In this document: positions 6,354 to 43,140 of the stretch, piece by piece
Layout of the letters: the number at the start of each line of letters is the position of its first letter
Numbering within the stretch: position 1 is the stretch's first letter
DNA from: Candidatus Thermosaccharophagus tengchongensis
GTDB lineage: Bacteria; Armatimonadota; Fervidibacteria; Fervidibacterales; Thermosaccharophagaceae
Length of the DNA stretch: 64,000 nucleotides
Assembly (NCBI GenBank): GCA_032161105.1
Contig: JAVHTD010000005.1
Strand: one strand, 5' to 3'
The notes under the pieces: generated by a model
Told to the model about the DNA's origin: nothing
Seen by the model: the letters and a program-made list of their open reading frames with translations, nothing else
The model's database searches: none
Translations under genes and position numbers: made by a program

Positions 6354-9300
6354 TCATCGGCTTGCGTCCTCTCCCTGCATAAACCGAACCATATCAAGCG
6401 GCTTGAGCTGAGTTGGCTCATCAAGCCACTTTAGGAAGACTTTCACAGCTTGCGATTTGGTCATCTCGCGTCCTATAAGCCTTTCACACAGCGATTTCAA
6501 GCTCCTCACGGCGATCGGCGTCGGCGATATTGCCGCATTGATGCACTCAATCACATCGTCGCTGAGCGCTTCAAGCCAGACATCATTACTCTCGCTCGCG
6601 CTCAAGCTCAGCAGGCGCTTCAACCGCTGCCTCGTGATGGATGTCGGAAGGCGTTCCATGAATGATTCAACTTTGCCCCTCAAATCTGGTGCAAGGAGGC
6701 GCCCCTTGCACTCATCGGCTATCTCCTCAATCCGCTTTTCCATCTCCTCAGGCGGTGTTAGGGAGAGGTGTTCGCCGAGCATCAGCTTGCAGCTCTGGCA
6801 CACTGGCGAGTCACGAAGCTGGCGCATAAGCTGCTCTTTTGTGACGGTGCATCGCTTTGACAGTTCGGCTCCGATTGCCCTAATCGCCTCAGCAGCGCCC
6901 ATCACCTGCAGGCGTAGCTGCGCCGCTCTGCTGAGCAGCCTGAAGGCGCTGTGATGCCTGAGCTTGATGTATGGCTCAAAGCGTGAGGCGTTATGTTCAT
7001 TCTCGTGGTGTGTCAAATATTGCTCCGTGTAATTGCGGAGCAACTCCTCCCAAGACGAGATGAGCCAATCAAGCTTGCCCAAGATGACTTCACCTTCATC
7101 AATGCTCTCAACCAAGCGCTCTGAGAGCACTTTCAGTTCATCGCTGAGCCTCAAATTCGCGCTCGTTAGCCAAGCGTGTATTTTCCGCAGCTCGCCGCAC
7201 TTTGCCAGCGAGTTGTAAATTTGAACGCACACATCCCATGCTGACTTGAGTTCATCTTCGCTCACTCCGTTGGCGTGGAGGGTTGCAACCCATCCTTTGA
7301 GACCATCATGCGGCATCAGCTCATCTGATATGGCGCTTACGGCTACACTTACAGTCCCAATGGCATTGAGCGATTGAGACCACATGGCGCTGCTGTGTTG
7401 CAGTTGCGTCATTAGCGTGACCAATTCGCCGTGCGCCCGTTCGCACATTTCGGATGCATGTCCCTTCCACGAGGTGAGGTTTCTCCAGAGCACTTGAACT
7501 GCAGCTGGATGAGGGGAGCCCTCAACTTTTGGTGGCGGTATTTGGATGGCGCTCGCATACGAAGTTACGGCTTCCCAAGTTTCTCGGTCAACGAGCGGTG
7601 CTGCGCTTAATGCTGCCACTTGCCTGTGGAGTGGTGAGCCAAGCCGTTGCGGCAGCAACGGTGAGCCGTATCTGTCATGCGCCATAACCTCGCCACGCCT
7701 GAGCAGCGCCGCAATGAGCAATTCAAGCTGCTCATCACGGAGCCCATACTCGCTTTTACGGGCTGTAGCGGCAAGCTGCTCATATGCAATTGGCGCATCC
7801 AAGCTGGCTATTAGCTCGCATATGAGCTTTAAAGCGCCCTCGCATGGTGCAGCGCCATCAAGCACCTGTGTAGTTATTCCGAGCGGCATTGCAACGCATC
7901 TCCAAAGCTCCTTCAGGTCGGCGCTCAGCCTTTGCGGGTTCTCACCAGCTAAGATTGAGTTGATGAGCCTTTTATGTTCGTCCGAGGGGCGCAACGGTGA
8001 GCGTGGTGCAACGGATGTAAACTGGGGGAAGACCTTCGGAACAGATGCGCCAGCGATTGCCACAAGGACATCGCTAAGGGATGCCTCAGTCGGTATGAGC
8101 GCCGATATGGGGAGCTTCCTTTCACCGACGAGCAATGTGCCGCCTAAGTATGCATTGCGCATTATCCGCTGCGTCTCATTTGCCCTTGCAGTCTCCTCCT
8201 CCCGCAAGCGCTTGTATATTGCCATTCCAATGTCGCTATCCCTGAGCGATGGGTCGTTTATCAGGATTGATGCAGCAGCGTTTTCCGTCAGGCGAATCAT
8301 CTCGCCTCTGCCGATTGTTTTCGGGATGAGAATGGCTATTGCGAACTTGAACCGATTCTCCTCAAGTGAGCGCAGCAGCTCCGCAGCGCACTTAACTTGC
8401 TCATCTGTTGCGATTGGCGGCGCGATGAGAATGTGGATATCGTAAGTGCACGATGGGGAAGCGATATGGTGTTGAAGTCTGAGCAGCCACTCAGCTGTAA
8501 CCTCCCTCAGGTCAATGCACTGCAGCATGAGATTGAACTGCGCATTTTGCCACTCAACTGCCGCTGTTCGCCCAAAGCCGATTTGCGGCATTGGCAGCGG
8601 TGATGTTGACATCGCCCTTAACGCATATTCAATCACCCTGATGTCCCCTTCCGAGAGTGTGTCAATTAACGCCTGCAGCCTCCGCCGAAGCATTTCCGTT
8701 GTGGTTGCGCCCAAGTCAACGGAATACACATCGCCGTAATCTTCCTCACGCCTGAGGCAGTCAATGTAGTTTGCGCTCATGCGCAATGTCTCCAGCAGCG
8801 AGAGCATGTAGCTGTAGTTCATTTCGGCACCCAAGCCCAAGTCCCAAAGGAATGTGTGAGAGAGCTTCCTCACTGGCGCATCCATGCCCGCAATCTTGAA
8901 TGCCACAAGCGCCCTCACAAGCTTCCTCACAGCTTCCTTTCGCTCGGGGAAAAGTTCGCCCACCCTCTCATCAAGGTGAGGGACAACTTCGTCGGCGTAT
9001 GAGTGCAGTTCGGGATGTGAAAGGATGTCGGCGTAAAAGTGCTCGTAGATTGCGTCTGGAGTGATTAGTTGAAATGCATCACAGTCGGCAAGGCGCATCG
9101 CTTGACTTTGAACGAAATCAACGATTGAGCGAGTCCTTGAGAAGAATCGTCCAGCGGCTCTCTCAAGGCATGCGAGCGTGAACGGGTGCAGCGGATAGCA
9201 CGCCATCAATTCCTCAGCGCTGAATTCAATCATGGGGAAGGCTTGTGTGAGTTTTCGGTGCCATTGGAGCATGAGTTGTGTGAACTGGCGCTCGTCCTTC

Positions 9301-10130
9301 AGCGGGAGCAAGTTCCTTCGTATGAGCTGGCGTGCATGCGCAAACGAAAGCGCATAGCGCACATATCTGTCCTTGATTTGCGTTATGGAATACGGCTCAA
9401 GCTCACCGAGCTCCTCAACTGTTCGTTGTATGGCTGCGATCAACCATGTATGCGAGCGCTGGCAATATTGCGCGATGAATTGAAGGAATGACGCATCAGC
9501 TTGCAGTTGGCTGTGTTCCTTTGCCTGAAGAAACATTGAGAGCTCATCAATGAGCCAAAGCATGCGCTCATACCCAAGCTCATTTGCAGCCCTTTGAAGT
9601 GCTCCGAGCGCCTCAGCACGCGATGGCGGCATTTTGGTCGGCAGATTTTGAGTTGCCTTGTGAGGGTGAATTCGCCTCAGCGATGCGACGGTCTCTTCCC
9701 AGAGAATTTGCTCAAGCGGCGCTTTTGGGGAATAGGAATCCAAGCTGATGAATGTGACCAACCACTTGTGCTTAGCGATTTCGCTCACCAATTTGGCATA
9801 GCGTTCGTGCGAGCGCGTGAAGAGCTCTCTCGCCCATTGGAACTGGCAGAGGAGCCCGATGATGGCGAGCATATGGCTTTTCCCCGTCCCGAACGCGCCG
9901 CTAACCATGTATGCGCAGCCATTCGCTTTGCTCATGCCCGTGAGTATGCCCTCAATTGCGGCTTCATTTGCCCCGTGAACGACGAGGTATGATGCCGTGA
10001 TTTCTCGCAGCGCCTCTTGCCTTGCCCCTTCAAGTTCGGCGTGAGCGGCATGTGAGATGCTGGCGAGTTGAATTACGGTTGGCACGCCCCTTATCTCCAC
10101 TAAGTCGCCAATTCGCATGAGAGGATTCAC
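6354..10130 (-). CDS. Large P-loop ATPase, DUF6079 / BrxC-PglY-like
   Basis: Walker A GAFGTGKSH, Walker B LWLIDE, YPLHP motif, long helical region, C-terminal PVCQSC; 1258 aa. Confidence 0.7.
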   Translation of the reverse strand: MNPLMRIGDLVEIRGVPTVIQLASISHAAHAELEGARQEALREITASYLVVHGANEAAIEGILTGMSKANGCAYMVSGAFGTGKSHMLAIIGLLCQFQWARELFTRSHERYAKLVSEIAKHKWLVTFISLDSYSPKAPLEQILWEETVASLRRIHPHKATQNLPTKMPPSRAEALGALQRAANELGYERMLWLIDELSMFLQAKEHSQLQADASFLQFIAQYCQRSHTWLIAAIQRTVEELGELEPYSITQIKDRYVRYALSFAHARQLIRRNLLPLKDERQFTQLMLQWHRKLTQAFPMIEFSAEELMACYPLHPFTLACLERAAGRFFSRTRSIVDFVQSQAMRLADCDAFQLITPDAIYEHFYADILSHPELHSYADEVVPHLDERVGELFPERKEAVRKLVRALVAFKIAGMDAPVRKLSHTFLWDLGLGAEMNYSYMLSLLETLRMSANYIDCLRREEDYGDVYSVDLGATTTEMLRRRLQALIDTLSEGDIRVIEYALRAMSTSPLPMPQIGFGRTAAVEWQNAQFNLMLQCIDLREVTAEWLLRLQHHIASPSCTYDIHILIAPPIATDEQVKCAAELLRSLEENRFKFAIAILIPKTIGRGEMIRLTENAAASILINDPSLRDSDIGMAIYKRLREEETARANETQRIMRNAYLGGTLLVGERKLPISALIPTEASLSDVLVAIAGASVPKVFPQFTSVAPRSPLRPSDEHKRLINSILAGENPQRLSADLKELWRCVAMPLGITTQVLDGAAPCEGALKLICELIASLDAPIAYEQLAATARKSEYGLRDEQLELLIAALLRRGEVMAHDRYGSPLLPQRLGSPLHRQVAALSAAPLVDRETWEAVTSYASAIQIPPPKVEGSPHPAAVQVLWRNLTSWKGHASEMCERAHGELVTLMTQLQHSSAMWSQSLNAIGTVSVAVSAISDELMPHDGLKGWVATLHANGVSEDELKSAWDVCVQIYNSLAKCGELRKIHAWLTSANLRLSDELKVLSERLVESIDEGEVILGKLDWLISSWEELLRNYTEQYLTHHENEHNASRFEPYIKLRHHSAFRLLSRAAQLRLQVMGAAEAIRAIGAELSKRCTVTKEQLMRQLRDSPVCQSCKLMLGEHLSLTPPEEMEKRIEEIADECKGRLLAPDLRGKVESFMERLPTSITRQRLKRLLSLSASESNDVWLEALSDDVIECINAAISPTPIAVRSLKSLCERLIGREMTKSQAVKVFLKWLDEPTQLKPLDMVRFMQGEDASR

Positions 10131-17481: not shown

Positions 17482-17784
17482 ATGGAGGCAAAGTATGTGC
17501 TTGTCGTCACGAAGAATGGCTACGCAAAGCGAGTGCCCATAGAGGATGTGCGTGTCCGTAAGCGCCCTGCAAAGGGTGTTTCCGGAGTTGACCTTGCTGA
17601 AGGTGATACGCTCATTGCAGCACTGCCGGTTGGCGAGGGTGGTGAGATTGTCGTCGCAACAGTGCAAGGGCGCGTTGTCAGACTTAGGTTGGAAGAAATC
17701 AAGACCGCATCGCGCTCCGCAAAAGGCTCTCGCTTGATGGTGCTTGAGGAGGGCGACTCTATAGCCAGTGTTGCTCTCATATAG
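17482..17784 (+). CDS. Stand-alone protein of two DNA gyrase A C-terminal beta-pinwheel repeats
   Basis: VLVVTKNGYAKR..RKRPAKGVSGVDL and IVVATVQGRVVR..SRSAKGSRLMVL each match the GyrA/ParC blade pattern; GGGAGG RBS. Confidence 0.85.
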   Translation: MEAKYVLVVTKNGYAKRVPIEDVRVRKRPAKGVSGVDLAEGDTLIAALPVGEGGEIVVATVQGRVVRLRLEEIKTASRSAKGSRLMVLEEGDSIASVALI

Positions 17785-17841: not shown

Positions 17842-17879
17842 AAGCGTCGGGTTAGGATACCCGACGCTTTTGCTATTTT
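17842..17879 (+). terminator. Intrinsic terminator
   Basis: AAGCGTCGGGT-taggat-ACCCGACGCTT perfect 11-bp stem followed by a T-rich run. Confidence 0.8.
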
Positions 17880-17929: not shown

Positions 17930-17954
17930 AAAAAGCCCCTACGGGTGGCTTTTT
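17930..17954. terminator. Probable bidirectional terminator
   Basis: AAAAAGCC-CC-tacg-GG-t-GGCTTTTT hairpin flanked by A and T tracts between convergent genes. Confidence 0.65.
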
Positions 17955-19866
17955 AGCTCCATTTCTTCAGGTGGCGTAAGAGCCATAGCGTGCTTAATTG
18001 CTTCGTTAAAATTGTTTTGCCAGAGCCATCGGCAACAACGAGCAAGCCGTTCATCCCGTCACGCCACAGATAAATTGCCCTGTATTGCGTCGCAATAAAA
18101 CGGCAGTTTTTCCCCTTTAAATCGTGTTTTGGCATTGGCTGTGGAAGCAATGATGGTGGTAGTTTGCGCTCCAGCGATTTGAGCAAATTAATGCATAAGC
18201 TGCACATTGTTTTCCCTTTCAAGCACGAAAAGCAGTATCTTTGCTCGCAAAGTATGCATTTGCTACTGCACAGGTGGCAAACAGTTGCCCCACAAATGCC
18301 GCACTGCGTGACATGTTTCGGGCAAACTATTTTAGCGCATGATTGACAATAAACGACATGTTCGCTGCAGAGGGTAGTTGAACAACAGTTGGCTCTAAAA
18401 GCGTGCATTGTGCAAATATTTGAACCGCAACTTGAGCAAATATTTCTGCATTTCGCGCAAATTATTTGCCCACATGTTGAACACACTGAGCCGTCCTCAG
18501 CGCAGACAGACTTGCCACAGGTGGAGCATCTGTGAATTCTCTCACTGTTTTGTTGCAAACAATCATTACAAATTGCCTTATCACACACAGTGCAGATAAT
18601 GGCATCATTGGCACATACAATCTTTCCACATATGTAGCATTCAGCTGAACACATCTTACAGATTCCTCTCCCGCAAAACTCACATTTTGCGCTGTGTGGC
18701 TCGCAAATTCGCTTGCCGCAAATTTCGCACACCATAAAGCATTCCTTGCAAACAGGCAGATTGCAAATTTCGCAAAAGCCCTCAATGCAACCTCTGCAGT
18801 ATGCTCTGCCACATGTTGAGCATTCCAAAATGCAATCGCTACACACAGCGTGTTTACATGCGCAAAGGTTTACAAGGCTCATTTGTGAGGCACAACTGGC
18901 ACATGTTGGGAGAGCGAAAGTGCCATCATAAAGGTTGTGGTAAGCCTTGAAGGACAGTTGATGTGAGTCCTGCACCACAGTAAACTTGAATTCAGCCACT
19001 GGAACGCTAATTTCAGCGATACCCACAACATGAATTGAGACGAAAGGTTGACGCCTTTGCGCTTCCTCTTCCATCCTCTCATTCCTCTCATCAATCAACC
19101 TTTCCATTTCGTGCCAAAATTGCCTGCTATTTCCCGCTTTGATGGCAGCTTCTCCGAACAGGCTGGAGTAATAGCTCGCAATGCGCATAAGTTCGGCTTT
19201 TGAGCGCTCACGCGCGGTTTTGGTCAACCCAGAAAGCCAATCTGATAGCAAACTTTCGTGCCTCTCTTTGAGCAATTCAAGGAGCTTTCTCAGAAGCGAA
19301 CGGTTATACGATGGTTTTGCTGGTTTGGCGTCAAAAAGAATTCTGTCCACCCTGTGAGTGACATCCTCAACAAATCCGTTTTCAAGCACCATAAAGCTTT
19401 TTAGCGCGCCTTTTTCGTATGCTGGCGTGCAAGATAATGAGAGACTGACAAGTAAACCACGCAACTTTGCCCTCCTTCTCTTGACCGAGATAAGCTTGCA
19501 ATTCCCGAAGCGCAAATTCGGCTCCGTTGGCTTTTCAACCTCGGGCAATTCAATGGCGATATGCAATGCAGCGGACTTTAGCCACTCGTGGACGCGATGG
19601 AAAAGTCGACTTCCGGGAGAAAATAGCAGGGCACCTTGAACAGCTTCGCACGCATCCTTTTCAAACACGACGATGAGCTCTTCACTGTCCCATTCAAACG
19701 GGGAACCTTCAGGCAACACGATTTGCAGCAATTTCCCTCTATCTATCACCTTTGCACCGATGGACTTGAAAAATTGGCGGCATAAAAAACGAAGCCATGA
19801 TTCCAAATCATTGGCTGTGGTCGCATTACACACTGTATCCCGATCCAATCGCTCAAATTGCCGCAT
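17953..19866 (-). CDS. YqhG-like protein with tandem Cys-rich zinc-binding repeat tail
   Basis: N-terminal FSPGSRLFHRV and coiled RIASYY...ERMEEE segments resemble the YqhG-type helicase partner; C-terminal third is CxxC-x4-Cxx[C/H/D] repeats; ATG at 19866 follows GGGGGA. Confidence 0.6.
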   Translation of the reverse strand: MRQFERLDRDTVCNATTANDLESWLRFLCRQFFKSIGAKVIDRGKLLQIVLPEGSPFEWDSEELIVVFEKDACEAVQGALLFSPGSRLFHRVHEWLKSAALHIAIELPEVEKPTEPNLRFGNCKLISVKRRRAKLRGLLVSLSLSCTPAYEKGALKSFMVLENGFVEDVTHRVDRILFDAKPAKPSYNRSLLRKLLELLKERHESLLSDWLSGLTKTARERSKAELMRIASYYSSLFGEAAIKAGNSRQFWHEMERLIDERNERMEEEAQRRQPFVSIHVVGIAEISVPVAEFKFTVVQDSHQLSFKAYHNLYDGTFALPTCASCASQMSLVNLCACKHAVCSDCILECSTCGRAYCRGCIEGFCEICNLPVCKECFMVCEICGKRICEPHSAKCEFCGRGICKMCSAECYICGKIVCANDAIICTVCDKAICNDCLQQNSERIHRCSTCGKSVCAEDGSVCSTCGQIICAKCRNICSSCGSNICTMHAFRANCCSTTLCSEHVVYCQSCAKIVCPKHVTQCGICGATVCHLCSSKCILCEQRYCFSCLKGKTMCSLCINLLKSLERKLPPSLLPQPMPKHDLKGKNCRFIATQYRAIYLWRDGMNGLLVVADGSGKTILTKQLSTLWLLRHLKKWS

Positions 19867-19919
19867 TTTTATCCCCCGCCGAGGGCACAACTTCGGCGAT
19901 TAAACACATCCGCTCATCA

Positions 19920-21722
19920 TCAGCTTTGCCTTATGAGCTCCCAAAGCATCTGGTTTGCCTGCCTTATGCGCTCGTAACGCTCCGCTGCCCTCTGAATAAG
20001 TTTCCCAATTTGTGAAAGGCGCTCTTTTTCCTCATCTGGCGTCTCGCTCTGCATGATTGCTTCTGCAACAAGCCGTTCAATGCTCTCTTCAAGGTGTGCG
20101 ATACCGAGCATTAGCTCAAGTTCGCCAACCGTCATCTCAAACAAGCCGATCTTCGTTATTAGCAACTCAAGTATGCGCTCTTCAACTGTGTGTTCTGTTG
20201 CCAAGTTTACAACGAACACGGGCTTATCCTGTCCCAACCTGTGAACACGCCCGATGCGCTGCTCAAGGCGCATAGGATTCCAAGGTAGGTCAAAATTGAT
20301 CACCACTCTGCAGAACTGTAAGTTTCGCCCTTCGGCTCCTGACTCCGTGCTTATCATTATCCTCGCGCTTTCTCTGAACCTCTCAACAGCCCTGTCCTTT
20401 GCCCTTTCGCTCATGCTCCCATGATACAGGACGACTTCCTCACCGCGTTTTTCAAGGGCTTCCTTGAGCAACTCCATACTCGCGATGTAATCGGTGAATA
20501 TGAGCACCTTCTCCTCAATTGCGTTCACAAGTTGTGCGGTGTGCTCAACCTTTGCGCATAGCGGTGTCGCCCTCGCAAGCTCATAAAATTCAGCCAGCCG
20601 TTCCCTTATCTCGTCCGGATATTCATCACACACCATCTTTAGCAAAGTCCTTTCCACCGCACGGGGCGTGCTGCAAAGTTCCTTTTGAAGCAATATGAGC
20701 GTAAGCTTCAAATGCCTTTCCTTCCCGGACGACTTGCTGAGCCGCTTATAGCTCTGCCTCAAAAAAGTCGTCATCTCTTCATACAAGCGAAGTTCTGGCG
20801 GAGTGAGTGAGATGTAATGTGTTGTAGCGTATCTCGGTGGAAGCATTATTCCAACTTCGTCCCTATGATGCCGTATCATCACCGATGAGATCAACCGGCG
20901 CAGCTCCCCAACATTCTTTGGCATCCTCGGATCATCAGCCATAACATACCGCCTTTTGAAGCTCTGCAGTGTTCCAAGCTGACCCGGCTTTATCAGGGTC
21001 ACAAGGTTGTAAAGTTCAAGCAGGTTGTTCTGAATAGGAGTTGCGGTTAGAAGCAGAGTGTAGCGCTTTCGTATCTTGCGGCAGAAGCGATGGGCAAGCG
21101 TTGAGCTGTTCCTAAGTTTGTGGGCTTCATCAATTATGAGCAAGTCAAATTCACGCCCATGTATGGCGCTGCTATGAGGCTCGCGCTTTGCCAGGTCAAT
21201 TGATCCTATTACGCGCTCATGCGAGAACCAATCATCCTTTCGCCGGGCTATGGTGAATGTCTCCCCAAACTTCTCAAGCATCTCATGACGCCATTGGTAG
21301 GTTAATGAAGCCGGCACGAGTATGAGCACACTTTTAACAAGTCCCCTCACGATCAGCTCTTTCATCACCAACCCGGCTTCAATTGTTTTGCCCAGACCGA
21401 CATCATCGGCGAGTAAAGCACACCCACCCATTTCGTTCAACACTCTTAAGGCGGTTTCAACTTGGTGCGGGAAGTGAGAAATGCGCACTTGACCCCAGCA
21501 TTGCAACTCCTCAAAGGATTGCATGGCACGAAGCTGCTCAGCCATCAGCAACAGAAAGTGGGCTTCATTTGATGGGATAGAGCACTCCGAAGCAGTGAAG
21601 TCGGGTATGCGCCACTCAACGATTGGGGTAAAATCCAGGAACTTTTCCGCCACTTTTTCCGGGGACATCCACTCGCTATCATCATCCAGCTTTTCATGCT
21701 TGTAAAGTTCAGCCTTTGGCAT
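19920..21722 (-). CDS. SNF2-family helicase/translocase (YqhH-like)
   Basis: LADDVGLGKT, IIDEAH, LLTATP, STESGAEGRNLQ and DLPWNPMRLEQRIGRVHR motifs. Confidence 0.9.
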   Translation of the reverse strand: MPKAELYKHEKLDDDSEWMSPEKVAEKFLDFTPIVEWRIPDFTASECSIPSNEAHFLLLMAEQLRAMQSFEELQCWGQVRISHFPHQVETALRVLNEMGGCALLADDVGLGKTIEAGLVMKELIVRGLVKSVLILVPASLTYQWRHEMLEKFGETFTIARRKDDWFSHERVIGSIDLAKREPHSSAIHGREFDLLIIDEAHKLRNSSTLAHRFCRKIRKRYTLLLTATPIQNNLLELYNLVTLIKPGQLGTLQSFKRRYVMADDPRMPKNVGELRRLISSVMIRHHRDEVGIMLPPRYATTHYISLTPPELRLYEEMTTFLRQSYKRLSKSSGKERHLKLTLILLQKELCSTPRAVERTLLKMVCDEYPDEIRERLAEFYELARATPLCAKVEHTAQLVNAIEEKVLIFTDYIASMELLKEALEKRGEEVVLYHGSMSERAKDRAVERFRESARIMISTESGAEGRNLQFCRVVINFDLPWNPMRLEQRIGRVHRLGQDKPVFVVNLATEHTVEERILELLITKIGLFEMTVGELELMLGIAHLEESIERLVAEAIMQSETPDEEKERLSQIGKLIQRAAERYERIRQANQMLWELIRQS

Positions 21723-22006: not shown

Positions 22007-22153
22007 CTCCTCTCATCACGAGTGGTGGAGGGTCACGCGCCCGATGAAGCCCGGCAACCTACCGATGGTGAAGGTGGCGAGCCATCGGCAAGGTGCCAAA
22101 TGCGTTGAGTCCTTGGCAGGCGTAAAAGCCCCAAGGGCGAGAGATGAGAGGAG
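22007..22153 (+). ncRNA. SAM-I (S-box) riboswitch aptamer
   Basis: P1 CTCCTCTCATC/GATGAGAGGAG; conserved ATCACGAG, GGTGGAGGG..GCCCGATGAAGCCCGGCAACC and GGTGCCAA; upstream of SAM synthetase. Confidence 0.93.
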
Positions 22154-22461
22154 TGGGATACCGTAGACGGCAGACATCATGCCGATGCTCAGGTCCCGCT
22201 CCTCTCCGCAAGGGGCGCTTCCAAGCCGTTTGGTGGCGTTCGCAATATCGCTGTGGTGAGGAGGCGGGACATGGGCAAGGGCTTAAAAGGCACAGGCGTT
22301 GAGCATCGCTGGCTGAAGAGGATTGCATGTGCTTCCCCACTAAGAGATCCTTCAACTCTTACGGAGTTGCTTAGCCACAAGCGTTGCGGATGCACCCCAA
22401 ACGGCTGGCAGCCCCAAGATCAAGCACATGGTGCAATACCCATGGGGAGGAGGTAATTCAA

Positions 22462-23730
22462 ATGCACTTGAAGGTGAGCGCCGGTAAGAACATCACTGTT
22501 GATGACATGCCGATGGAGATAGTTGAGCGCAAGGGGAAGGGTCATCCTGACACGCTTTGTGATGGGGCTGCTGAGGAACTCAGCAGGATGCTATGCATGT
22601 TCTATCGTGAGCATGCTGGACGCATACTTCACCACAATGTGGACAAGTGTGTCCTTGCCGGTGGACGCTCATCACCGAGGCTTGGCGGGGGTGCAATTGA
22701 AGAGCCAATCTATGTTCTGCTTGTTGGCAGGGCAACTCTTGAGTGGCGTGGCTCACAGGATGAAATTCGGCGCGTGCCAATCGGGAGGATGGTGCTGCAG
22801 GGCATTCAGAGTTGGTTTAAGGAGCAGCTCCCACATTTGCCCATACCGGGCGCACTTATGGTTGACTACAGGATAAAGCGAGGAAGCGAGGACTTGATCG
22901 CCAATTACGACATGACCTCCAATGTTCCGAGGGCAAATGACACTTCGCTTGCGGTCGCATTTGCTCCCCTCTCAGCGACCGAGCAGCTCGTCAAAGAGAC
23001 GGAGATGTTCCTCAACTCGCCCGAGTTGAAAGCCGAACTGCCAGCACTCGGTGAGGATATAAAGGTTATGGGGGTAAGGGTGGGCAGGCATATAAGGTTA
23101 ACGGTGGCAGCTGCGTTCATTGACCGATATGTGAGGTCAGTTAGCGAATACTACGAATTGAAGGAAGCGGTAAAGTGGAGACTCAAACAACACTTGTGGG
23201 AGAATTGCCTGACCAAGTTCCCGGTGGAGTATGATGTTGACATTGAGCTCAACACAGCTGATGAAGGCGATACCATTTACATCACCGTTACTGGGACGAG
23301 TGCCGAGTGCGGTGATGATGGACAGGTTGGGAGGGGTAACAGGATTAACGGATTGATAACACCATACCGCCCAATGAGCCTTGAAGCTGCAGCCGGCAAG
23401 AATCCTGTATCTCATGTCGGTAAGATCTATCAGGTGATGGCTCAATTGATCGCAAACAAGCTTGTTGAAGCACGACCATCCCTCAGGCAAGTCTATTGCT
23501 ATATGGTTAGCCAAATTGGGCATCCGATCACAGATCCGCAAGCGGTCAACATTGAATACTACGGTGATGTGTCGGAAAGCGAGATGAGACAACTTGCAAG
23601 CAATGCTGTTGATCAAGTGTTATCGCAGTGGCGTGAAATACAAGATGGATTTGTTGAAGGGACATGGGGGGTTAACTACCCGGGCATGGTTGTTGCCCGC
23701 CAAGTTGAACCAGCCAAGAAGGGCACTTAA
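22462..23730 (+). CDS. Methionine adenosyltransferase, archaeal type
   Basis: [46 protein letters not shown] and [12 protein letters not shown] motifs; GGAGGAGG RBS. Confidence 0.92.
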
Positions 23731-25949: not shown

Positions 25950-26744
25950 ATGCCGCTTTACTTCGCCAATGAAGCAATTTCCCTTTACCATGATGACTTC
26001 TTGAACTTCACAGAGCTGCCTGAAGAGAGCGTTGACTTGATTGTGACCTCTCCGCCTTACGATGTGGACATACAGTATGATGGTTATACTGACAACCTGC
26101 CATACCCGAAGTATTTGGAGTTCATCACAAGGGCATTGCAGAGGTGCTACTTGCTGGCAAAGCCCGATGGGCGATTGTGCTTGAACATCCCACTGGACAA
26201 AAACAAAGGCGGACAACAAAGCGTGTATGCTGACATAGTGAACATAGCGAAGGAGGTTGGGTGGAAGTATCACACGACCATCATTTGGAATGAGCAAAAC
26301 ATATCTCGGAGAACAGCATGGGGCTCATGGTTAAGCGCCTCAGCACCATTTGTGATTGCACCAGTTGAAACAATCCTCGTGATGTATAAAAAGCAGTGGC
26401 AGAAACAGAGCAAAGGTTTCTCCGATATAACTCGCGATGAATTTCTGGAGTGGACAAACGGTGTTTGGACCTTCAGTGGTGAGAGCCGAAAAAGGGTTGG
26501 TCACCCGGCACCATTTCCTGTGGAGCTGCCGCGCCGGTGCATCAAGTTGTTCAGCTATGTCGGTGATGTGGTGTTAGACCCATTCGTTGGCAGTGGGACT
26601 ACTCTCTTAGCATGCTGGGAGTTAAAGCGCATCGGAGTAGGTGTGGAAATTAGCGAGGCTTATTGCAAGTTAGCGGTTAAACGGTTGCTGAGATTTCTCA
26701 AGCAACCTCGTTTGGAGCTTCAGGAGGACAAGGCTTCGGATTGA
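25950..26744 (+). CDS. DNA amino-methyltransferase, beta class (SPPY, probably N4-cytosine)
   Basis: VDLIVTSPPY precedes HPAPFP and VLDPFVGSGTT. Confidence 0.92.
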   Translation: MPLYFANEAISLYHDDFLNFTELPEESVDLIVTSPPYDVDIQYDGYTDNLPYPKYLEFITRALQRCYLLAKPDGRLCLNIPLDKNKGGQQSVYADIVNIAKEVGWKYHTTIIWNEQNISRRTAWGSWLSASAPFVIAPVETILVMYKKQWQKQSKGFSDITRDEFLEWTNGVWTFSGESRKRVGHPAPFPVELPRRCIKLFSYVGDVVLDPFVGSGTTLLACWELKRIGVGVEISEAYCKLAVKRLLRFLKQPRLELQEDKASD

Positions 26745-27307
26745 AGAGCCCACTTTTGAATGTCCTCAGGAAGGTCAGTCAATGGTTTCACAATGTCCCC
26801 GAACTTCGTCTCAACAGTTGGCGGGCAAAAAGCCGGGTGGTTTTTCACATACACTCCGCACAAGAAGCGACGCGCCAATCGCCGATTCTTGTTTGGGCGG
26901 TTTGGAGATCCCCACTCTGAGCGACCGCTATGCCCTTTATCGGGTGTCACCAAAACGAAGCGAATGCCAGCTCGGTGATAAACGATGCTCCAAAAGAGCG
27001 TCTCTGTTAGCCGATTATGTAAACTTAGTTTGCAACTCACGATGGCTATTGGTTGATTGCCCTTTGCGATGACAATATCCACATCGCCAAAGAGCGGCTT
27101 TGTGTCGCCTATCTCTTCAAGATCCACTGCTCCCCACAAAGAGCCGACTTTGCAAAGCAGCCTCTCCCTTAACACCTGAGGGAGATTCCTCTCACGGTAT
27201 ACTGAGAAGCCTCTCTTAACCAACTCACGCCTCAAATATTCCGCCACATACTCTTCCCATCGTTCCCCTTCCTCATGGACCGTTCGTTGGCGTGTTGATT
27301 CACTCAT
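26720..27307 (-). CDS. Putative type II restriction endonuclease (PD-(D/E)xK, BsaWI/Cfr10I-like)
   Basis: GERWE and GDVDIVI...IVSCKLSLHNRLTETLFW motifs; convergent with and overlapping the methyltransferase. Confidence 0.65.
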   Translation of the reverse strand: MSESTRQRTVHEEGERWEEYVAEYLRRELVKRGFSVYRERNLPQVLRERLLCKVGSLWGAVDLEEIGDTKPLFGDVDIVIAKGNQPIAIVSCKLSLHNRLTETLFWSIVYHRAGIRFVLVTPDKGHSGRSEWGSPNRPNKNRRLARRFLCGVYVKNHPAFCPPTVETKFGDIVKPLTDLPEDIQKWALQSEALSS

Positions 27308-27384
27308 CACCGTCGCCACCAATTGGTGAGTGGTTGACTTATAGCTCAAACTTTTCAGCGCTCCACAATGCTTGCCGTTAGTCA

Positions 27385-29367
27385 TTAAACGGCGATGGCT
27401 GCAAGTTGTGCGAACACTTGTTCATCGCTAAAGCCGCGCAGGTCAATGCTTTTATTTCGGCATGCGGCAACGCATGCACCGCAGCCCTCGCACAATCCGG
27501 GATTAACCGATGAGACCACTTTGATCAAGTTGCCTCGCCTATCCCTTATTTCCTTCCGCTCAATCGCGTTGTATGGGCAGACCCTCTCACAATCAAAGCA
27601 GCCTGTGCATGTCATTTCGTTAACCACTGCGATTGTCGGCTCACGCTCAATTCTCGGCGTGCCAAACAGACTGAGCACCTTCGCGGCTGCAGCGCTTGCC
27701 TGCGCCACCGAATCTGGGATGTCCTTAGGGGCTTGGCATGCGCCTGCAAGGAAGACTCCCGCAGTGGTCGTTTCAACTGGGCGCAGCTTGGGATGAGCTT
27801 CGCTGAAGAAACCATGCTCATCATATGAGATGCGCAATTTGCGTGCAAGCTCTTCAAAACCATCTGAAGGGCGCATAGCCGTCGCAAGCACAACCAAGTC
27901 AGCCTCAACCTCAATCAGTTTTCCGCTGAGCGTATCCATGCCCTTGACCACGAGTTTGCCATTGCTCTCGTAAATCCTTGAGACCCTGCCTCGTATGTAG
28001 CATGCGCCTTCTTCCTCAATCGCCCTGCGCACAAATTCGTCATAGCCCTTCCCGCCGGCTCTTATGTCCATGTAAAACACATAACACTCGCCATCATGCA
28101 CCCTGTGCTTGAACAGGAGGGCGTGCTTCGCAATATACATGCAGCAGATCTTTGAGCAGTATGGTATTCCCTTTGCCCTATCCCTTGAGCCAACGCATGC
28201 TATGAAGACAACGACCTTTGCTTCCTTTCCATCCGAGGGGCGCAATATTCTTCCGCCGGTTGGACCTGAGGCACTTAACAGGCGCTCAAATTGGAGACCG
28301 TCAATCACATCCTTGAACCTGCCACCACCATACTCGCCGTAAAGCGATGGCGAGATAAGCTCATACCCCGTAGCCACAACGATTGCTCCGACTTTCTCGG
28401 TGATTAGCTCATCCTGCTGCTCATAGTCAATCGCCTTTACCGGGCAAACCCTCTCGCATACTCGGCACTTCCCCTCAGTGAAGTAGCGGCAATGCTCTCG
28501 GTCAATGACTGGCACATTGGGAACTGCCTGTGGGAATGGCGTGTAAATTGCCGGGCGCGTTCCAAGCCCCCTATCAAACTCGCTCGGTATCCCGTCACGC
28601 CTTGCCGGACAACGCTGTGTGCACAACCCGCAACCAGTGCACAGATCCTCGCGCACTGAACGAGCTTTCTTTCTGATCGTCACTTCAAAGTTGCCCACAT
28701 AACCTTGCACCACTTCAACAACCGAATATGTGTAGAGCTTGATTTTCGGGTGCTGGCGGACTTGAACCATCTTTGGTGTGAGTATGCACTGAGAGCAGTC
28801 AAGCGTTGGGAATGTTTCTGAAAGCTGTGCCATGTGTCCGCCGATTGACGGCTCACGCTCAACGAGCACAACTTCATAGCCGGCGTCGGCGATATCCAAG
28901 GCTGCTTGAATGCCGGCTATGCCGCCTCCGATGACAAGGGCGCGCTTTGTCACATCAATGTGAATTGGGTGAAGCTCGTGATTTCGCTTCACCTTCTCAA
29001 CCATGATTCGCACAAGCTCAATTGCTTTCCTCGTCGCCGCCTCCCTATCCTGATGCACCCATGAGCAATGCTCCCTTATGTTCGCCATCTCGCAAAGGTA
29101 TGGATTTAATCCAGCTGCAGCGCATGCGGCACGGAATGTAGGCTCATGCATTGATGGGCTGCATGCAGCCACAACAACGCCTGTCAAATGGTGCTCCCTT
29201 ATGGCGTCTTGGATGACCTTCTGACCCGGGTCCGAGCACATGTAGCGGTAATCGGTTGAGTAAACGACGCCCGGATGCTTCGCCAGCTCATCCCTTACCC
29301 TCTCAACATCAACTGTTGCAGCTATGTTGACGCCGCAGTGGCAAATGAAAACGCCAATTCGTGGCAT
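27385..29367 (-). CDS. hdrA: Heterodisulfide reductase subunit A
   Basis: RIGVFICHCGVNIA, ANIREHCSWVH, GGGIAG, TFPTLDCSQC, YCSKICC and ferredoxin CxxCxxCxxxC motifs. Confidence 0.95.
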   Translation of the reverse strand: MPRIGVFICHCGVNIAATVDVERVRDELAKHPGVVYSTDYRYMCSDPGQKVIQDAIREHHLTGVVVAACSPSMHEPTFRAACAAAGLNPYLCEMANIREHCSWVHQDREAATRKAIELVRIMVEKVKRNHELHPIHIDVTKRALVIGGGIAGIQAALDIADAGYEVVLVEREPSIGGHMAQLSETFPTLDCSQCILTPKMVQVRQHPKIKLYTYSVVEVVQGYVGNFEVTIRKKARSVREDLCTGCGLCTQRCPARRDGIPSEFDRGLGTRPAIYTPFPQAVPNVPVIDREHCRYFTEGKCRVCERVCPVKAIDYEQQDELITEKVGAIVVATGYELISPSLYGEYGGGRFKDVIDGLQFERLLSASGPTGGRILRPSDGKEAKVVVFIACVGSRDRAKGIPYCSKICCMYIAKHALLFKHRVHDGECYVFYMDIRAGGKGYDEFVRRAIEEEGACYIRGRVSRIYESNGKLVVKGMDTLSGKLIEVEADLVVLATAMRPSDGFEELARKLRISYDEHGFFSEAHPKLRPVETTTAGVFLAGACQAPKDIPDSVAQASAAAAKVLSLFGTPRIEREPTIAVVNEMTCTGCFDCERVCPYNAIERKEIRDRRGNLIKVVSSVNPGLCEGCGACVAACRNKSIDLRGFSDEQVFAQLAAIAV

Positions 29368-41355: not shown

Positions 41356-42420
41356 ATGGGCATATCCATATCTCAAGAGTGGAAAGATTGCATTATGCAA
41401 GTCCTCTCAAAGCCGTATAGACCGCACATTGTGTTCGTCGTCGGCGTCCCCGATGTAGGTAAGACAACATTTTGCTGCGCCCTCGCGAACATCGCAATTG
41501 AGCATGGGCTAACCACAATGGTTGTAGATGCTGACATTGGTCAGTCAAGTATAGGACCACCAACGACCATCGGGCTTGGAAGAGTTAGAAACAAAATTGA
41601 GCGCCTCAGCGATGCCGAATTTGTCGCTGGGTTCTTTGTCGGGCACATTTCGCCAATGGGTCATCTGCTTCCCACCGTGATTGGCACAAAGCTCATGATT
41701 GATAAAGCCGTTTCAAACGGCGCTGATATCGTCATCGTTGACACTACGGGGCTCGTGAGAGGTGCCATTGGACGGGAGTTAAAATGGAACAAAGTGCGGC
41801 TCATCAAACCACAGTCACTAATCGCTATTGAGCGCGGCAACGAGTTGGCTCACTTGCTCGTGCCGCTAAGGCGTTTGGAGTGGCTTCAAATATACCGTGT
41901 GAGCGCCTCTGATGCTGCTGTGCAGCGTGATAGAGGGCTCAGGAAGTTGCATCGTGAAAGCAAGTTTAAGCAATTCTTTGAAGGTGCAAGGGAAGTGGAA
42001 CTATCTCTTGAGAGTGTGGCTCTCCTTGGGACATGGCTCGGTTGTGGCACGCCTGCTCACCCGAGCTTTGTAGCGCACCTTTCCGAGATTGCCGACGCGG
42101 AAATCGCACATGCAGAGAGATGCGACAATGTCGGCGTGCTCGTGACAGCAGAGAGAATCAGTGAAGACGCGATGCGATGGATTGCATCCCGTTGGGGCGT
42201 GGATGAGATTGTCACCATATCACTTGAGCAGATCAGTGGGTTAGTAGTGGGCTTACACGATGGAAACGGTGAATTCTTATCCATTGGAGTGCTGCTCGCT
42301 TATGATGGCTCATCAAGGAAGTTGCGCGTGCTAATGCCATCATCGGTTAATCCGAGTGATGTTGCCCTTCTCGTCTTTGGGAAGCACCGCATTAGCACCG
42401 AAGGAACTGAGTTAACTTAG
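41356..42420 (+). CDS. Clp1/Grc3-family polynucleotide 5'-hydroxyl kinase
   Basis: GVPDVGKTT, DADIGQSSIGPPTTIG, IVDTTGLV and lid R-x3-R-x3-R motifs. Confidence 0.85.
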   Translation: MGISISQEWKDCIMQVLSKPYRPHIVFVVGVPDVGKTTFCCALANIAIEHGLTTMVVDADIGQSSIGPPTTIGLGRVRNKIERLSDAEFVAGFFVGHISPMGHLLPTVIGTKLMIDKAVSNGADIVIVDTTGLVRGAIGRELKWNKVRLIKPQSLIAIERGNELAHLLVPLRRLEWLQIYRVSASDAAVQRDRGLRKLHRESKFKQFFEGAREVELSLESVALLGTWLGCGTPAHPSFVAHLSEIADAEIAHAERCDNVGVLVTAERISEDAMRWIASRWGVDEIVTISLEQISGLVVGLHDGNGEFLSIGVLLAYDGSSRKLRVLMPSSVNPSDVALLVFGKHRISTEGTELT

Positions 42421-42474: not shown

Positions 42475-43140
42475 ATGGAGCGAACGGTTCTCATCCTCGC
42501 CAGACATGGGGAAACATCTTGGAATAAGGAACACCGCTTTCAAGGGCAGAGAGATGCACCGTTGAGCGAACTCGGCTGGCTGCAGGCTATGGCATTGCAT
42601 GAGCGATTAAAAGATGAGCCCATAGATGCGGTTTACACAAGTGACCTCTTGCGAGCCTTTGAAACAGCTCAACTCATACTCCGAGGGCGAGACACCTGCA
42701 TAAATCCAACACCAGAGTTGCGTGAGCGCCATATGGGGGCTTGGGAGGGATTGACATTTGATGAGGCGATGAAAGCTTATCCTGAGGAAGTTAAGAAGTG
42801 GCTGAAGGAGCCATTGGCAACCGTTCCACTGGGTGAGGATGGAACGCACTTCGTCCAACGGGTGACGAAATTCTTTGAGAGACTGCTCAACATGCATTCT
42901 GGCGAGCGCATACTTGTTGTCTCGCATGCTGGTCCAATCAAGGTCGCAATATGCTCGCTGCTCAACTGGGACATGAGCTGCCTTCGCCATTTCAGGATTT
43001 CCAACGGGAGCATATCAGTCATTGAGGTGGGGCATAGAGGCGCCCTATGCAGCACGCTCAACGACGAATGCCATCTCATCAAGCTCAACCGAGCGCTCAC
43101 ACAAGCCCGACAATGTGGAAGCCCTGATCAACATAAATGA
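42475..43140 (+). CDS. Histidine phosphatase family protein
   Basis: RHGETSWN, SDLLRAFETA, LRERHMGAWEG and VSHAG motifs. Confidence 0.92.
   Translation: MERTVLILARHGETSWNKEHRFQGQRDAPLSELGWLQAMALHERLKDEPIDAVYTSDLLRAFETAQLILRGRDTCINPTPELRERHMGAWEGLTFDEAMKAYPEEVKKWLKEPLATVPLGEDGTHFVQRVTKFFERLLNMHSGERILVVSHAGPIKVAICSLLNWDMSCLRHFRISNGSISVIEVGHRGALCSTLNDECHLIKLNRALTQARQCGSPDQHK

Follow-up and report, generated by a model that had tools for sequence, protein, structure and literature searches.

The closest described counterparts of the system analyzed here are the RapA protein of Escherichia coli, the YqhH/YqhG pair of Bacillus and the SNF2-nuclease defence proteins ZorD and HmaA. The N-terminal domain of RapA (residues 1-107) is described as binding the flap tip and the zinc-binding domain of RNA polymerase (PMC8666675, PMC8501970), and residue D744 is placed in its Spacer domain (PMC8501970). 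In Bacillus, the gene order yqhH-yqhG is visible next to sinIR (PMC6123443), and the yqhH gene of B. thuringiensis has been linked to UV-stress resistance, according to the title of the report (PMC10054049). ZorD, from type I Zorya, is reported to be autoinhibited and to degrade phage DNA (PMC11946911), and HmaA is presented as an SNF2-nuclease defence protein (PMC11232893). Here we analyze a stretch of 64,000 nucleotides from contig JAVHTD010000005.1 of Candidatus Thermosaccharophagus tengchongensis (hereafter the window, to which all coordinates refer unless a locus is named), in which the gene for an SNF2-family ATPase is followed by that of a protein with a long cysteine (Cys)-rich array, which we call the partner. 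We give an even chance to the proposal that the two genes constitute an operon for a two-subunit SNF2 machine, and we compare this putative machine with each of the systems above.

The SNF2 gene (19920..21722, minus strand), defined by its open reading frame (ORF) and its Pfam domains, encodes 600 amino acids (aa). It is separated by an intergenic spacer of 53 bp (19867..19919, minus strand), in which a G-rich stretch read from the sequence precedes the partner ATG, from the partner gene (17953..19866, minus strand; 637 aa plus the stop codon). The partner ORF would extend over 17953-19890 on the minus strand and encode 645 aa if a TTG start were taken; the ATG at 19866 was chosen after a 98%-identical database protein of 637 aa (P0003), and with this start the layout given in the original prediction, an SNF2 ATPase of 600 aa followed after 53 bp by a protein of about 637 aa, is exact. 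Judged by its sequence, the first protein is an SNF2 (Swi2/Snf2) ATPase with both lobes, Walker A, DExH and motif VI. It matches Pfam SNF2-rel_dom (E 9.8e-39, 133.6 bits) and Helicase_C (E 1.8e-25, 89.7 bits) above their cut-offs, and its motifs are all intact (GLGKT109, DEAH198, TATP226 and QRIGR488). Residues 80-552 align with RapA 151-621 at 29% identity in blastp, a comparison that found no counterpart of RapA 1-150; an N-terminal Pfam domain is likewise missing. Since the alignment is confined to RapA 151-621, the window protein also has no equivalent of RapA 622-968.

The SNF2 protein does not qualify as a member of any of the curated classes that it resembles, be it RapA/HepA (NF003426), Zorya type I ZorD, DISARM, BREX or Hma. 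It falls below every NCBIfam cut-off, scoring 270 against 610 and 261 against 950 for DrmD, 191.8 against 576 for RapA and 109.4 against 1500 for ZorD. Its PADLOC match to BrxHI (271.8 bits) reflects generic SNF2 similarity, and that to HmaA (198 bits) covers the motor only, at model positions 90-393 of 1176. Pfam detects no nuclease domain in the protein. The DISARM partner domains DrmA, DrmB and DrmC are absent from the scanned window ORFs, as are Mrr, ZorA, ZorB and ZorC domains from the 55 window ORFs scanned for them; PglX and PglZ were not found in the window, where the only BREX candidate is a weak BrxC/SspC-like protein (55.6 bits) 10 kb away.

The pairing of the two genes extends beyond the window. 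A scan of genomes matched 78 stretches, five of which encode relatives of the partner: an Armatimonadota metagenome-assembled genome (L001), Halobellus rufus (L002), a plasmid of Salinirubellus litoreus (L003), Haloarcula sebkhae (L004) and Haloquadratum walsbyi (L005), the last of which has (at 8049-8594 of its own locus) a stand-alone protein of 181 aa made up of the Cys-knuckle repeat only, with no SNF2 gene beside it. In all four outside loci with a full-length partner, among the five fetched, an SNF2 gene encoding 595-601 aa immediately precedes the partner gene on the same strand. Identity to the window amounts to 80% in L001 and 40% in L002-L004 for the SNF2 protein, and to 63% in L001 and 21-22% in the haloarchaeal loci for the partner. 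The association of helicase and partner on which the original prediction depended is thus encountered elsewhere, and its idea of a two-component machine is supported, with the two proteins presumably in contact.

The partner itself belongs to a large group of proteins. A word-based search recovered five relatives among 4923 candidates, four of them of the Armatimonadota type (63-98% identity) and the fifth a 713-aa protein at 25% identity, and an exhaustive phmmer search retrieved 492 representatives (at 50% identity) at E<=1e-3, a number that falls to 189 with a limit of E<=1e-10 and to 24 with one of E<=1e-30. Among the best 150 representatives, 140 possess a dense array with 10 or more knuckles (the median being 26 and the range 10-69), and 120 of these 140 have at least 250 aa ahead of it. 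The named members of 10 clusters are all labelled 'hypothetical protein'. No model of Pfam, NCBIfam or PADLOC matches the partner as a whole or covers its Cys tail, which the original prediction was right to treat as an addition to YqhG, and the Cys array is a sizeable family without a Pfam model.

Residues 1-321 of the partner (18904..19866, minus strand) form a module with an alpha/beta subdomain, a long helical hairpin (helices 189-271) and a beta-hairpin (275-311). The YqhG likeness proposed for this half of the protein could be substantiated through its relatives, though not by a direct match to the YqhG model of Pfam (PF11079). This model matches three of 75 relatives at E<=0.001 (P0027, 36.2 bits; P0023, 27.4; P0016, 24.5) and three of a further 75 at E<=0.01 (P0123, 21.6 bits; P0104, 17.6; P0085, 16.9), and its gathering score of 25 bits is passed by only two of 150 relatives (P0027 and P0023). 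The N-termini of the window clade (seq­uences from seven members) align by hhalign with these six PF11079-matching relatives over 298 columns with a probability of 99.5 and E 5.5e-23, against negative controls of E 0.47 for the N-termini of E2-fused proteins and E 0.065 for the reversed six. A feature search of the Atlas provided a lead to a 268-aa Bacillota cluster (score 0.91), 24% of whose members carry PF11079. The N-terminal modules of the window clade and of the haloarchaeal proteins align with E 1.1e-4 over 259 columns, and the N-terminal 315 aa of the window partner match, on their own, 42 of 155 stored relatives. Because the link to YqhG runs via relatives that match PF11079, it is transitive but strong. 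The transitive and profile evidence thus makes a strong case that the N-terminal 320 aa or so of the partner are YqhG-like.

A second correspondence, which the original prediction missed, is the resemblance of the YqhG-like module to the Spacer and C-terminal domain (CTD) of RapA. The AlphaFold2 model of the partner, built on a 116-sequence alignment, has a predicted local distance difference test (pLDDT) score of 93.5 and a predicted template-modelling score (pTM) of 0.72, and runs from the alpha/beta subdomain through the helical hairpin, the beta-hairpin and periodic short strands along the array to the end domain. When this model was compared with the PDB by Foldseek, the top five matches were all E. 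coli RapA: 8T0L_F (E 1.3e-7, 311 aligned columns), 8SO8 (E 1.6e-7, RapA truncated at the N-terminus), 8SPG (E 2.2e-7, N-terminally truncated RapA with MgADP), 6BOG (E 1.2e-6) and 4S20 (E 2.7e-3); no PDB fold other than RapA matched the full model below E 7e-3. Every RapA match is lost when only residues 316-637 are modelled, and the similarity therefore resides in partner residues 1-315. A profile of 42 N-terminal sequences places partner residues 13-96 on RapA 703-791 by hhalign with a score of 25.9, which none of 100 shuffles of RapA reached (mean 15.1, standard deviation 2.0, maximum 20.1); through D744, this part of RapA is identified as the Spacer domain. A blastp search of the partner against RapA gave no match below E 8. 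The Spacer/C-terminal part of RapA is absent from the SNF2 chain and has, in the partner, a candidate counterpart made up of a fold-level match and a weak profile signal. With a RapA-like module in the partner and no such segment in the SNF2 protein, the two genes can be read as encoding a RapA-like remodeller in split form, from which the N-terminal domain of RapA is missing. Our reading of the models is that the YqhG-type module would be a detached counterpart of the RapA Spacer/CTD, encoded as a separate protein.

The same correspondence is an argument for viewing the pair as a housekeeping factor of the RapA/HepA type, which would clear stalled or post-termination RNA polymerase, or resolve conflicts between transcription and replication, with YqhG acting as the RapA Spacer/CTD in trans. 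Apart from RapA being the top structural match of the partner, the RapA Spacer is reported to contact the beta-prime zinc-binding domain (PMC8501970) and to wedge into the opened cleft of RNA polymerase (bioRxiv 10.1101/2024.09.28.614012), the YqhH protein of B. subtilis is called HepA/RapA and listed among RNA-polymerase-interacting translocases (PMC7385302), and the chromosomal position of the pair is stable in two genomes. The stretch of RapA for which blastp finds no counterpart in the window protein (1-150), however, includes the RNA-polymerase-binding N-terminal domain (1-107), the score against the RapA model of NCBIfam (192) is far below its cut-off (576), and in haloarchaea the pair is joined to a nuclease. 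We thus consider a strictly RapA/HepA-type function of this kind unlikely.

The second half of the partner is dominated by the Cys array (residues 322-558; 18193..18903, minus strand), which comprises 28 C-x2-[C/H/D] knuckles. The knuckles lie 7 or 8 residues apart, with C-x2-C-G-x2-hydrophobic alternating with C-x2-[C/H/D]-x3, and pair into 14 units of about 15 aa, that is, 14 putative four-ligand metal sites; an irregular C-A-C-K-H occurs at residues 335-339. The array had been predicted at about 18195-18905 with some 13 units; its existence and, within two nucleotides, its position hold, the count being 14, and the three units quoted as examples are present at residues 380-391, 462-473 and 507-518. 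Cysteine accounts for 21% of the array together with its edges (residues 316-570) as opposed to 1.6% of the N-terminal 315 aa, and across relatives of 20-98% identity the Cys columns of the array are invariant or nearly so and the Cys/His columns are conserved. Tandem Repeats Finder (minimum score 30) detects no DNA-level tandem repeat in the array, in agreement with the predicted divergence of the units at the DNA level; between 17900 and 19950 the program reports a single row, two copies of a 9-bp unit at 19074-19091, which does not lie in the array. The units of the array are therefore old and diverged.

The model of residues 316-637, which bears the array, has a pLDDT of 96.0 and predicts a continuous run of short beta-hairpins for which Foldseek finds no PDB match at E<=1e-3. 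The nearest PDB folds are tandem LIM domains (LMO2, 2XJY, E 5.3e-3, probability 0.87), with PZP/PHD, CHY and RBR zinc modules coming next, and the template-modelling (TM) scores against these zinc-module matches range from 0.14 to 0.25. At the sequence level, the best PDB profile match of the partner is a FYVE domain (E 0.0086), B-box and RING being among the other weak matches, and no Pfam LIM, PHD or B-box model matches the partner at E<=10. Hence, the array does not qualify as a member of the LIM, B-box or zinc-ribbon families, and its fold is, as modelled, a very confident prediction without a significant solved counterpart.

The putative metal sites of the array would most likely hold zinc. 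The abundance of cysteine in residues 316-570 also invites the view that the array has a redox activity, carries iron-sulfur centres or buffers metal in the way of a metallothionein; a match named 'prokaryotic metallothionein' (E 1.5e-3) appears in the viral structure library BFVD, and AlphaFold models no metals, leaving the ligand geometry out of sight. The fourth ligand, however, alternates between Cys, His and Asp, and the regular C-x2-C-G knuckles sit on short, confidently modelled beta-hairpins in the habit of zinc ribbons and LIM-like fingers. The nearest folds (LIM, PHD, CHY and RBR) are zinc modules, and no Fer4-type Pfam model matches. A redox, iron-sulfur or metal-buffering array is thus very unlikely in our estimate.

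Beyond the array, the end region of the partner (residues 559-637; 17956..18192, minus strand) consists of a linker and a small basic domain of four strands and a helix (588-634). This tail has a net charge of +10 over 79 aa, and the end domain is restricted to a close clade, being found by phmmer with the last 72 residues in only five of 155 stored relatives. The array itself carries little net charge (+6 over 237 aa; the median for the family is -0.3 per 100 aa), and binding of nucleic acids through its charge was accordingly dropped as a candidate function. A near-neutral array followed by a basic tail leads us to favour a rigid spacer or docking rod ending in a basic domain over a polybasic nucleic-acid binder.

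The array is also found behind other N-terminal domains, namely an E2-type UQ_con domain in four representatives and a VWA domain in one, and in a further protein (P0155) eight knuckles precede a C-terminal GNAT domain (the domain-fused relatives are P0049, P0070, P0140, P0147, P0071 and P0155). Joined in this way to UQ_con, VWA and GNAT, the Cys-knuckle array behaves, as far as sequences tell, as a mobile module. In a separate comparison, the full partner model matched uncharacterised giant-virus proteins in BFVD, the best being from Edafosvirus (E 1.7e-9, 352 columns) with low TM-scores; other matches were from Hyperionvirus, Harvfovirus and Bodo saltans virus, together with some phage proteins. 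These matches are probably caused by similar Cys arrays.

The gene context is different in haloarchaea. In all three haloarchaeal loci a gene for an Mrr_cat protein (216-220 aa) abuts or overlaps the partner stop codon, and the best PADLOC match of this Mrr protein is the C-terminal 150 or so positions of ZorD (E 8e-22). The neighbours include CARF-PIN, an AddAB/GajB-like helicase-nuclease, a Cas4-like nuclease, TnpB, a TraG/VirD4-type coupling protein and an LmuB-like SMC protein with a phosphoesterase. On the Salinirubellus litoreus plasmid (L003, 1-17709), the trio of SNF2, partner and Mrr genes lies within an island whose other genes encode a PD-(D/E)xK nuclease, an AddA/GajB-like helicase-nuclease, a split CARF-PIN pair, an ADP-ribosylglycohydrolase and HEAT-repeat and VWA proteins.

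This context raises the prospect of a system dedicated to defence against phages or plasmids, in which an SNF2 translocase and a zinc-rod sensor would recognize foreign DNA and the window copy would have lost its nuclease or borrow one from a gene located elsewhere. The Mrr nuclease with its ZorD-like best match, the defence or mobile genes around it and the plasmid location of one of the three loci argue in that direction, as does the span of the family across bacteria and archaea with 40% identity between their SNF2 proteins. To these may be added the variable length of the array (10-69 knuckles) and its fusion to E2-like and VWA domains, a G+C content of 0.47-0.50 in the pair against about 0.51-0.53 nearby, a type II restriction-modification pair 4 kb away, and the role in defence reported as proven for the SNF2-nuclease fusions ZorD (PMC11946911) and HmaA (PMC11232893). 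Yet no nuclease is attached to the pair in either Armatimonadota genome, the housekeeping flanks of the pair are syntenic between the two, the partner matches no PADLOC model, and the SNF2 scores are generic and below every curated cut-off. The defence role advanced in the original prediction finds support in the haloarchaeal relatives. As an explanation of the pair, we rate dedicated defence as rather unlikely. For the haloarchaeal trio of SNF2 motor, zinc-rod subunit and Mrr nuclease, a new defence system is plausible.

Returning to the two-subunit SNF2 machine, the immediate flanks of the pair bear on its organization. On the 3' side, a terminator-like hairpin with an 11-bp stem (17842..17869, no strand assigned) lies between the partner gene and a convergent mini GyrA-CTD gene; it was called by a consensus scan only, and terminator-like sites are no commoner than in shuffled sequence. 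On the 5' side, an S-adenosylmethionine (SAM) riboswitch (22010-22150, plus strand; RF00162, 54.4 bits against a gathering score of 44.4), about 82% conserved in L001 at the DNA level, and the archaeal-type S-adenosylmethionine (AdoMet) synthetase gene downstream of it (22384-23730, PF01941) diverge from the SNF2 gene, on its upstream side. With the hairpin on one side and divergent transcription on the other, the two genes look like a self-contained two-gene operon. Three further ORFs were rejected as genes: one of 77 aa, located upstream of the SNF2 gene, has no conserved counterpart in L001, another of 98 aa, also upstream of it, overlaps the riboswitch, and a third of 128 aa, antisense to the mini GyrA gene, is 51% conserved as opposed to 89% for the gene on the opposite strand.

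The mini GyrA-CTD gene (17482-17784, plus strand) encodes a protein of 100 aa made up of two DNA_gyraseA_C blades (E 1.8e-28), and the original prediction took its convergence with the partner as a hint of a DNA-topology locus, with the pair and this 'pinwheel' gene as its parts. The mini gene is real and is kept in L001 at 89% identity and in the same convergent position. Nonetheless, tblastn finds it neither in L005 nor in any of the three haloarchaeal loci, its strand is opposite to that of the pair and the hairpin separates the two transcription units; moreover, the two Armatimonadota loci are syntenic over the whole compared region, and the adjacency of the mini gene therefore says little. 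The claim of a topology locus is not supported by this comparison, and we deem it extremely improbable.

The paired genes and their conservation, the layout of the domains and the links of homology and fold are shown by the analysis; the contact between the two proteins, their metal content, the substrate and the biological role we infer as follows. Subunit 1 would be a bare SNF2 motor tracking along duplex DNA at the expense of ATP. The YqhG-type module of subunit 2 would dock on this motor and couple or gate it, completing and regulating it as the Spacer/CTD of RapA does within a single chain. This module would be followed by a rigid rod with about 14 sites of the Cys4, Cys3His or Cys3Asp kind, for which zinc is the most likely metal. 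The rod and the end domain together may pick out the target or keep it at a fixed distance, serving as a ruler or as a LIM-like docking platform. In haloarchaea, the Mrr nuclease would cut the target, the output being probably cleavage of foreign DNA, much like a ZorD in pieces. The window version has no nuclease, so its output would more likely be the ATP-driven displacement or remodelling of a protein-DNA complex. Regarding the role of the pair in this genome, a conflict or defence-type function comes just short of an even prospect, a RapA/HepA-like housekeeping function in transcription or repair is a possible but less than probable assignment, and some other role takes up the rest.

Several observations weigh against the two-subunit, RapA-related reading or against one of the roles envisaged for it. 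The RapA fold matches have query-based TM values (TMq) of 0.22-0.26 and root-mean-square deviations of 7.6-11 Å, and the likeness is thus mainly at the level of the fold; such values would fit a multi-domain match with differing angles between domains. The hhalign probability against the single RapA sequence is 3%, RapA is not listed among the 60 best of 83 PDB sequence-profile matches (E<=10), and PF11079 does not match the window partner even at E<=10. The co-occurrence of the two genes is counted over four outside loci only, in a family with about 490 other clusters, and the charge of the array offers no electrostatic hint of nucleic-acid binding. Among the scanned ORFs of the window and of L001 there is no nuclease, and the synteny that both share is of a housekeeping kind (an AI-2E transporter, a DUF4838 hydrolase, an NTP transferase, the pair, the AdoMet synthetase and an LmeA-like gene), which fits defence poorly. 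Conversely, the lack of a blastp counterpart for the domain through which RapA contacts RNA polymerase is a poor fit to RapA-like recycling.

Other genes of the window deserve mention in their own right. The restriction-modification pair at 25950-27385, 4 kb from the SNF2 and partner genes, is composed of an N4/N6 methylase (25950-26744, plus strand; PADLOC MTase_II, E 1.2e-94) and a BsaWI-like endonuclease whose gene (26720-27385, minus strand) overlaps that of the methylase. A DUF6079 protein of 1258 aa (6354-10130, minus strand) shows weak BrxC/PglY-like and SspC-like P-loop matches (55.6 and 49.9 bits), and the scanned ORFs around its gene contain no further BREX or Ssp domains. Farther away, a gene for a Clp1-type P-loop protein (41356-42420, plus strand; PF16575, E 1.4e-35) precedes one for a histidine phosphatase (42475-43140), and the two may form an RNA or polynucleotide kinase-phosphatase pair.

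The idea of YqhG as a RapA Spacer/CTD acting in trans provides a concrete and testable structural hypothesis for the uncharacterised YqhG/YqhH pair. Literature searches on YqhG/YqhH, PF11079 and SNF2 combined with zinc returned no paper describing this architecture, by the titles and abstracts shown, and those on PF11079 yielded only yqhG genes of an unrelated kind. What is added here is the correspondence with the Spacer/CTD of RapA, the extent of the family, the new fold of the array and the archaeal form that bears a nuclease. More generally, and taking all its parts jointly in what is a tentative and rather doubtful proposal, YqhG-type proteins might be detached RapA Spacer/C-terminal modules that define a widespread bacterial and archaeal class of two-subunit SNF2 remodellers; the long-tailed members would carry a rigid poly-zinc rod of a fold not described before, its sites numbering from about 5 to more than 30, which would act as a modular ruler for choosing the target; together with Mrr it would constitute a new kind of defence system; and the same rod would have been put to further use after E2-like and VWA domains and, possibly, in giant viruses.

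Set against known systems, the predicted rod recalls the LIM, PHD, PZP, CHY and RBR proteins in being an elongated string of small beta-hairpin modules with zinc knuckles, and differs from them in its 15-aa period, its spacing of four residues between knuckles and its 14 units (up to 69 knuckles in relatives), a combination without a solved counterpart. The haloarchaeal relatives combine an SNF2 protein with an Mrr_cat protein in the manner of ZorD, which is an SNF2 protein fused to an Mrr-like nuclease, and of HmaA, in which SNF2 is fused to a PD-(D/E)xK nuclease; the window SNF2 protein has no nuclease domain, and the haloarchaeal nuclease is a separate gene, absent from the window, with a YqhG/zinc-rod subunit interposed between motor and nuclease. 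The order of an SNF2 gene followed by a YqhG-type gene is shared with the YqhH/YqhG pair. The Pfam YqhG model, however, has 258 positions and the YqhG-bearing representative of the Atlas 268 aa, whereas the window partner, which has no PF11079 match of its own, adds about 315 aa of array and end domain. As for RapA, the SNF2 protein and the partner module would cover between them its core and its Spacer/CTD. In the window, this putative machine is split into two polypeptides, the second of which extends it with a Cys array of 237 aa and a small end domain.

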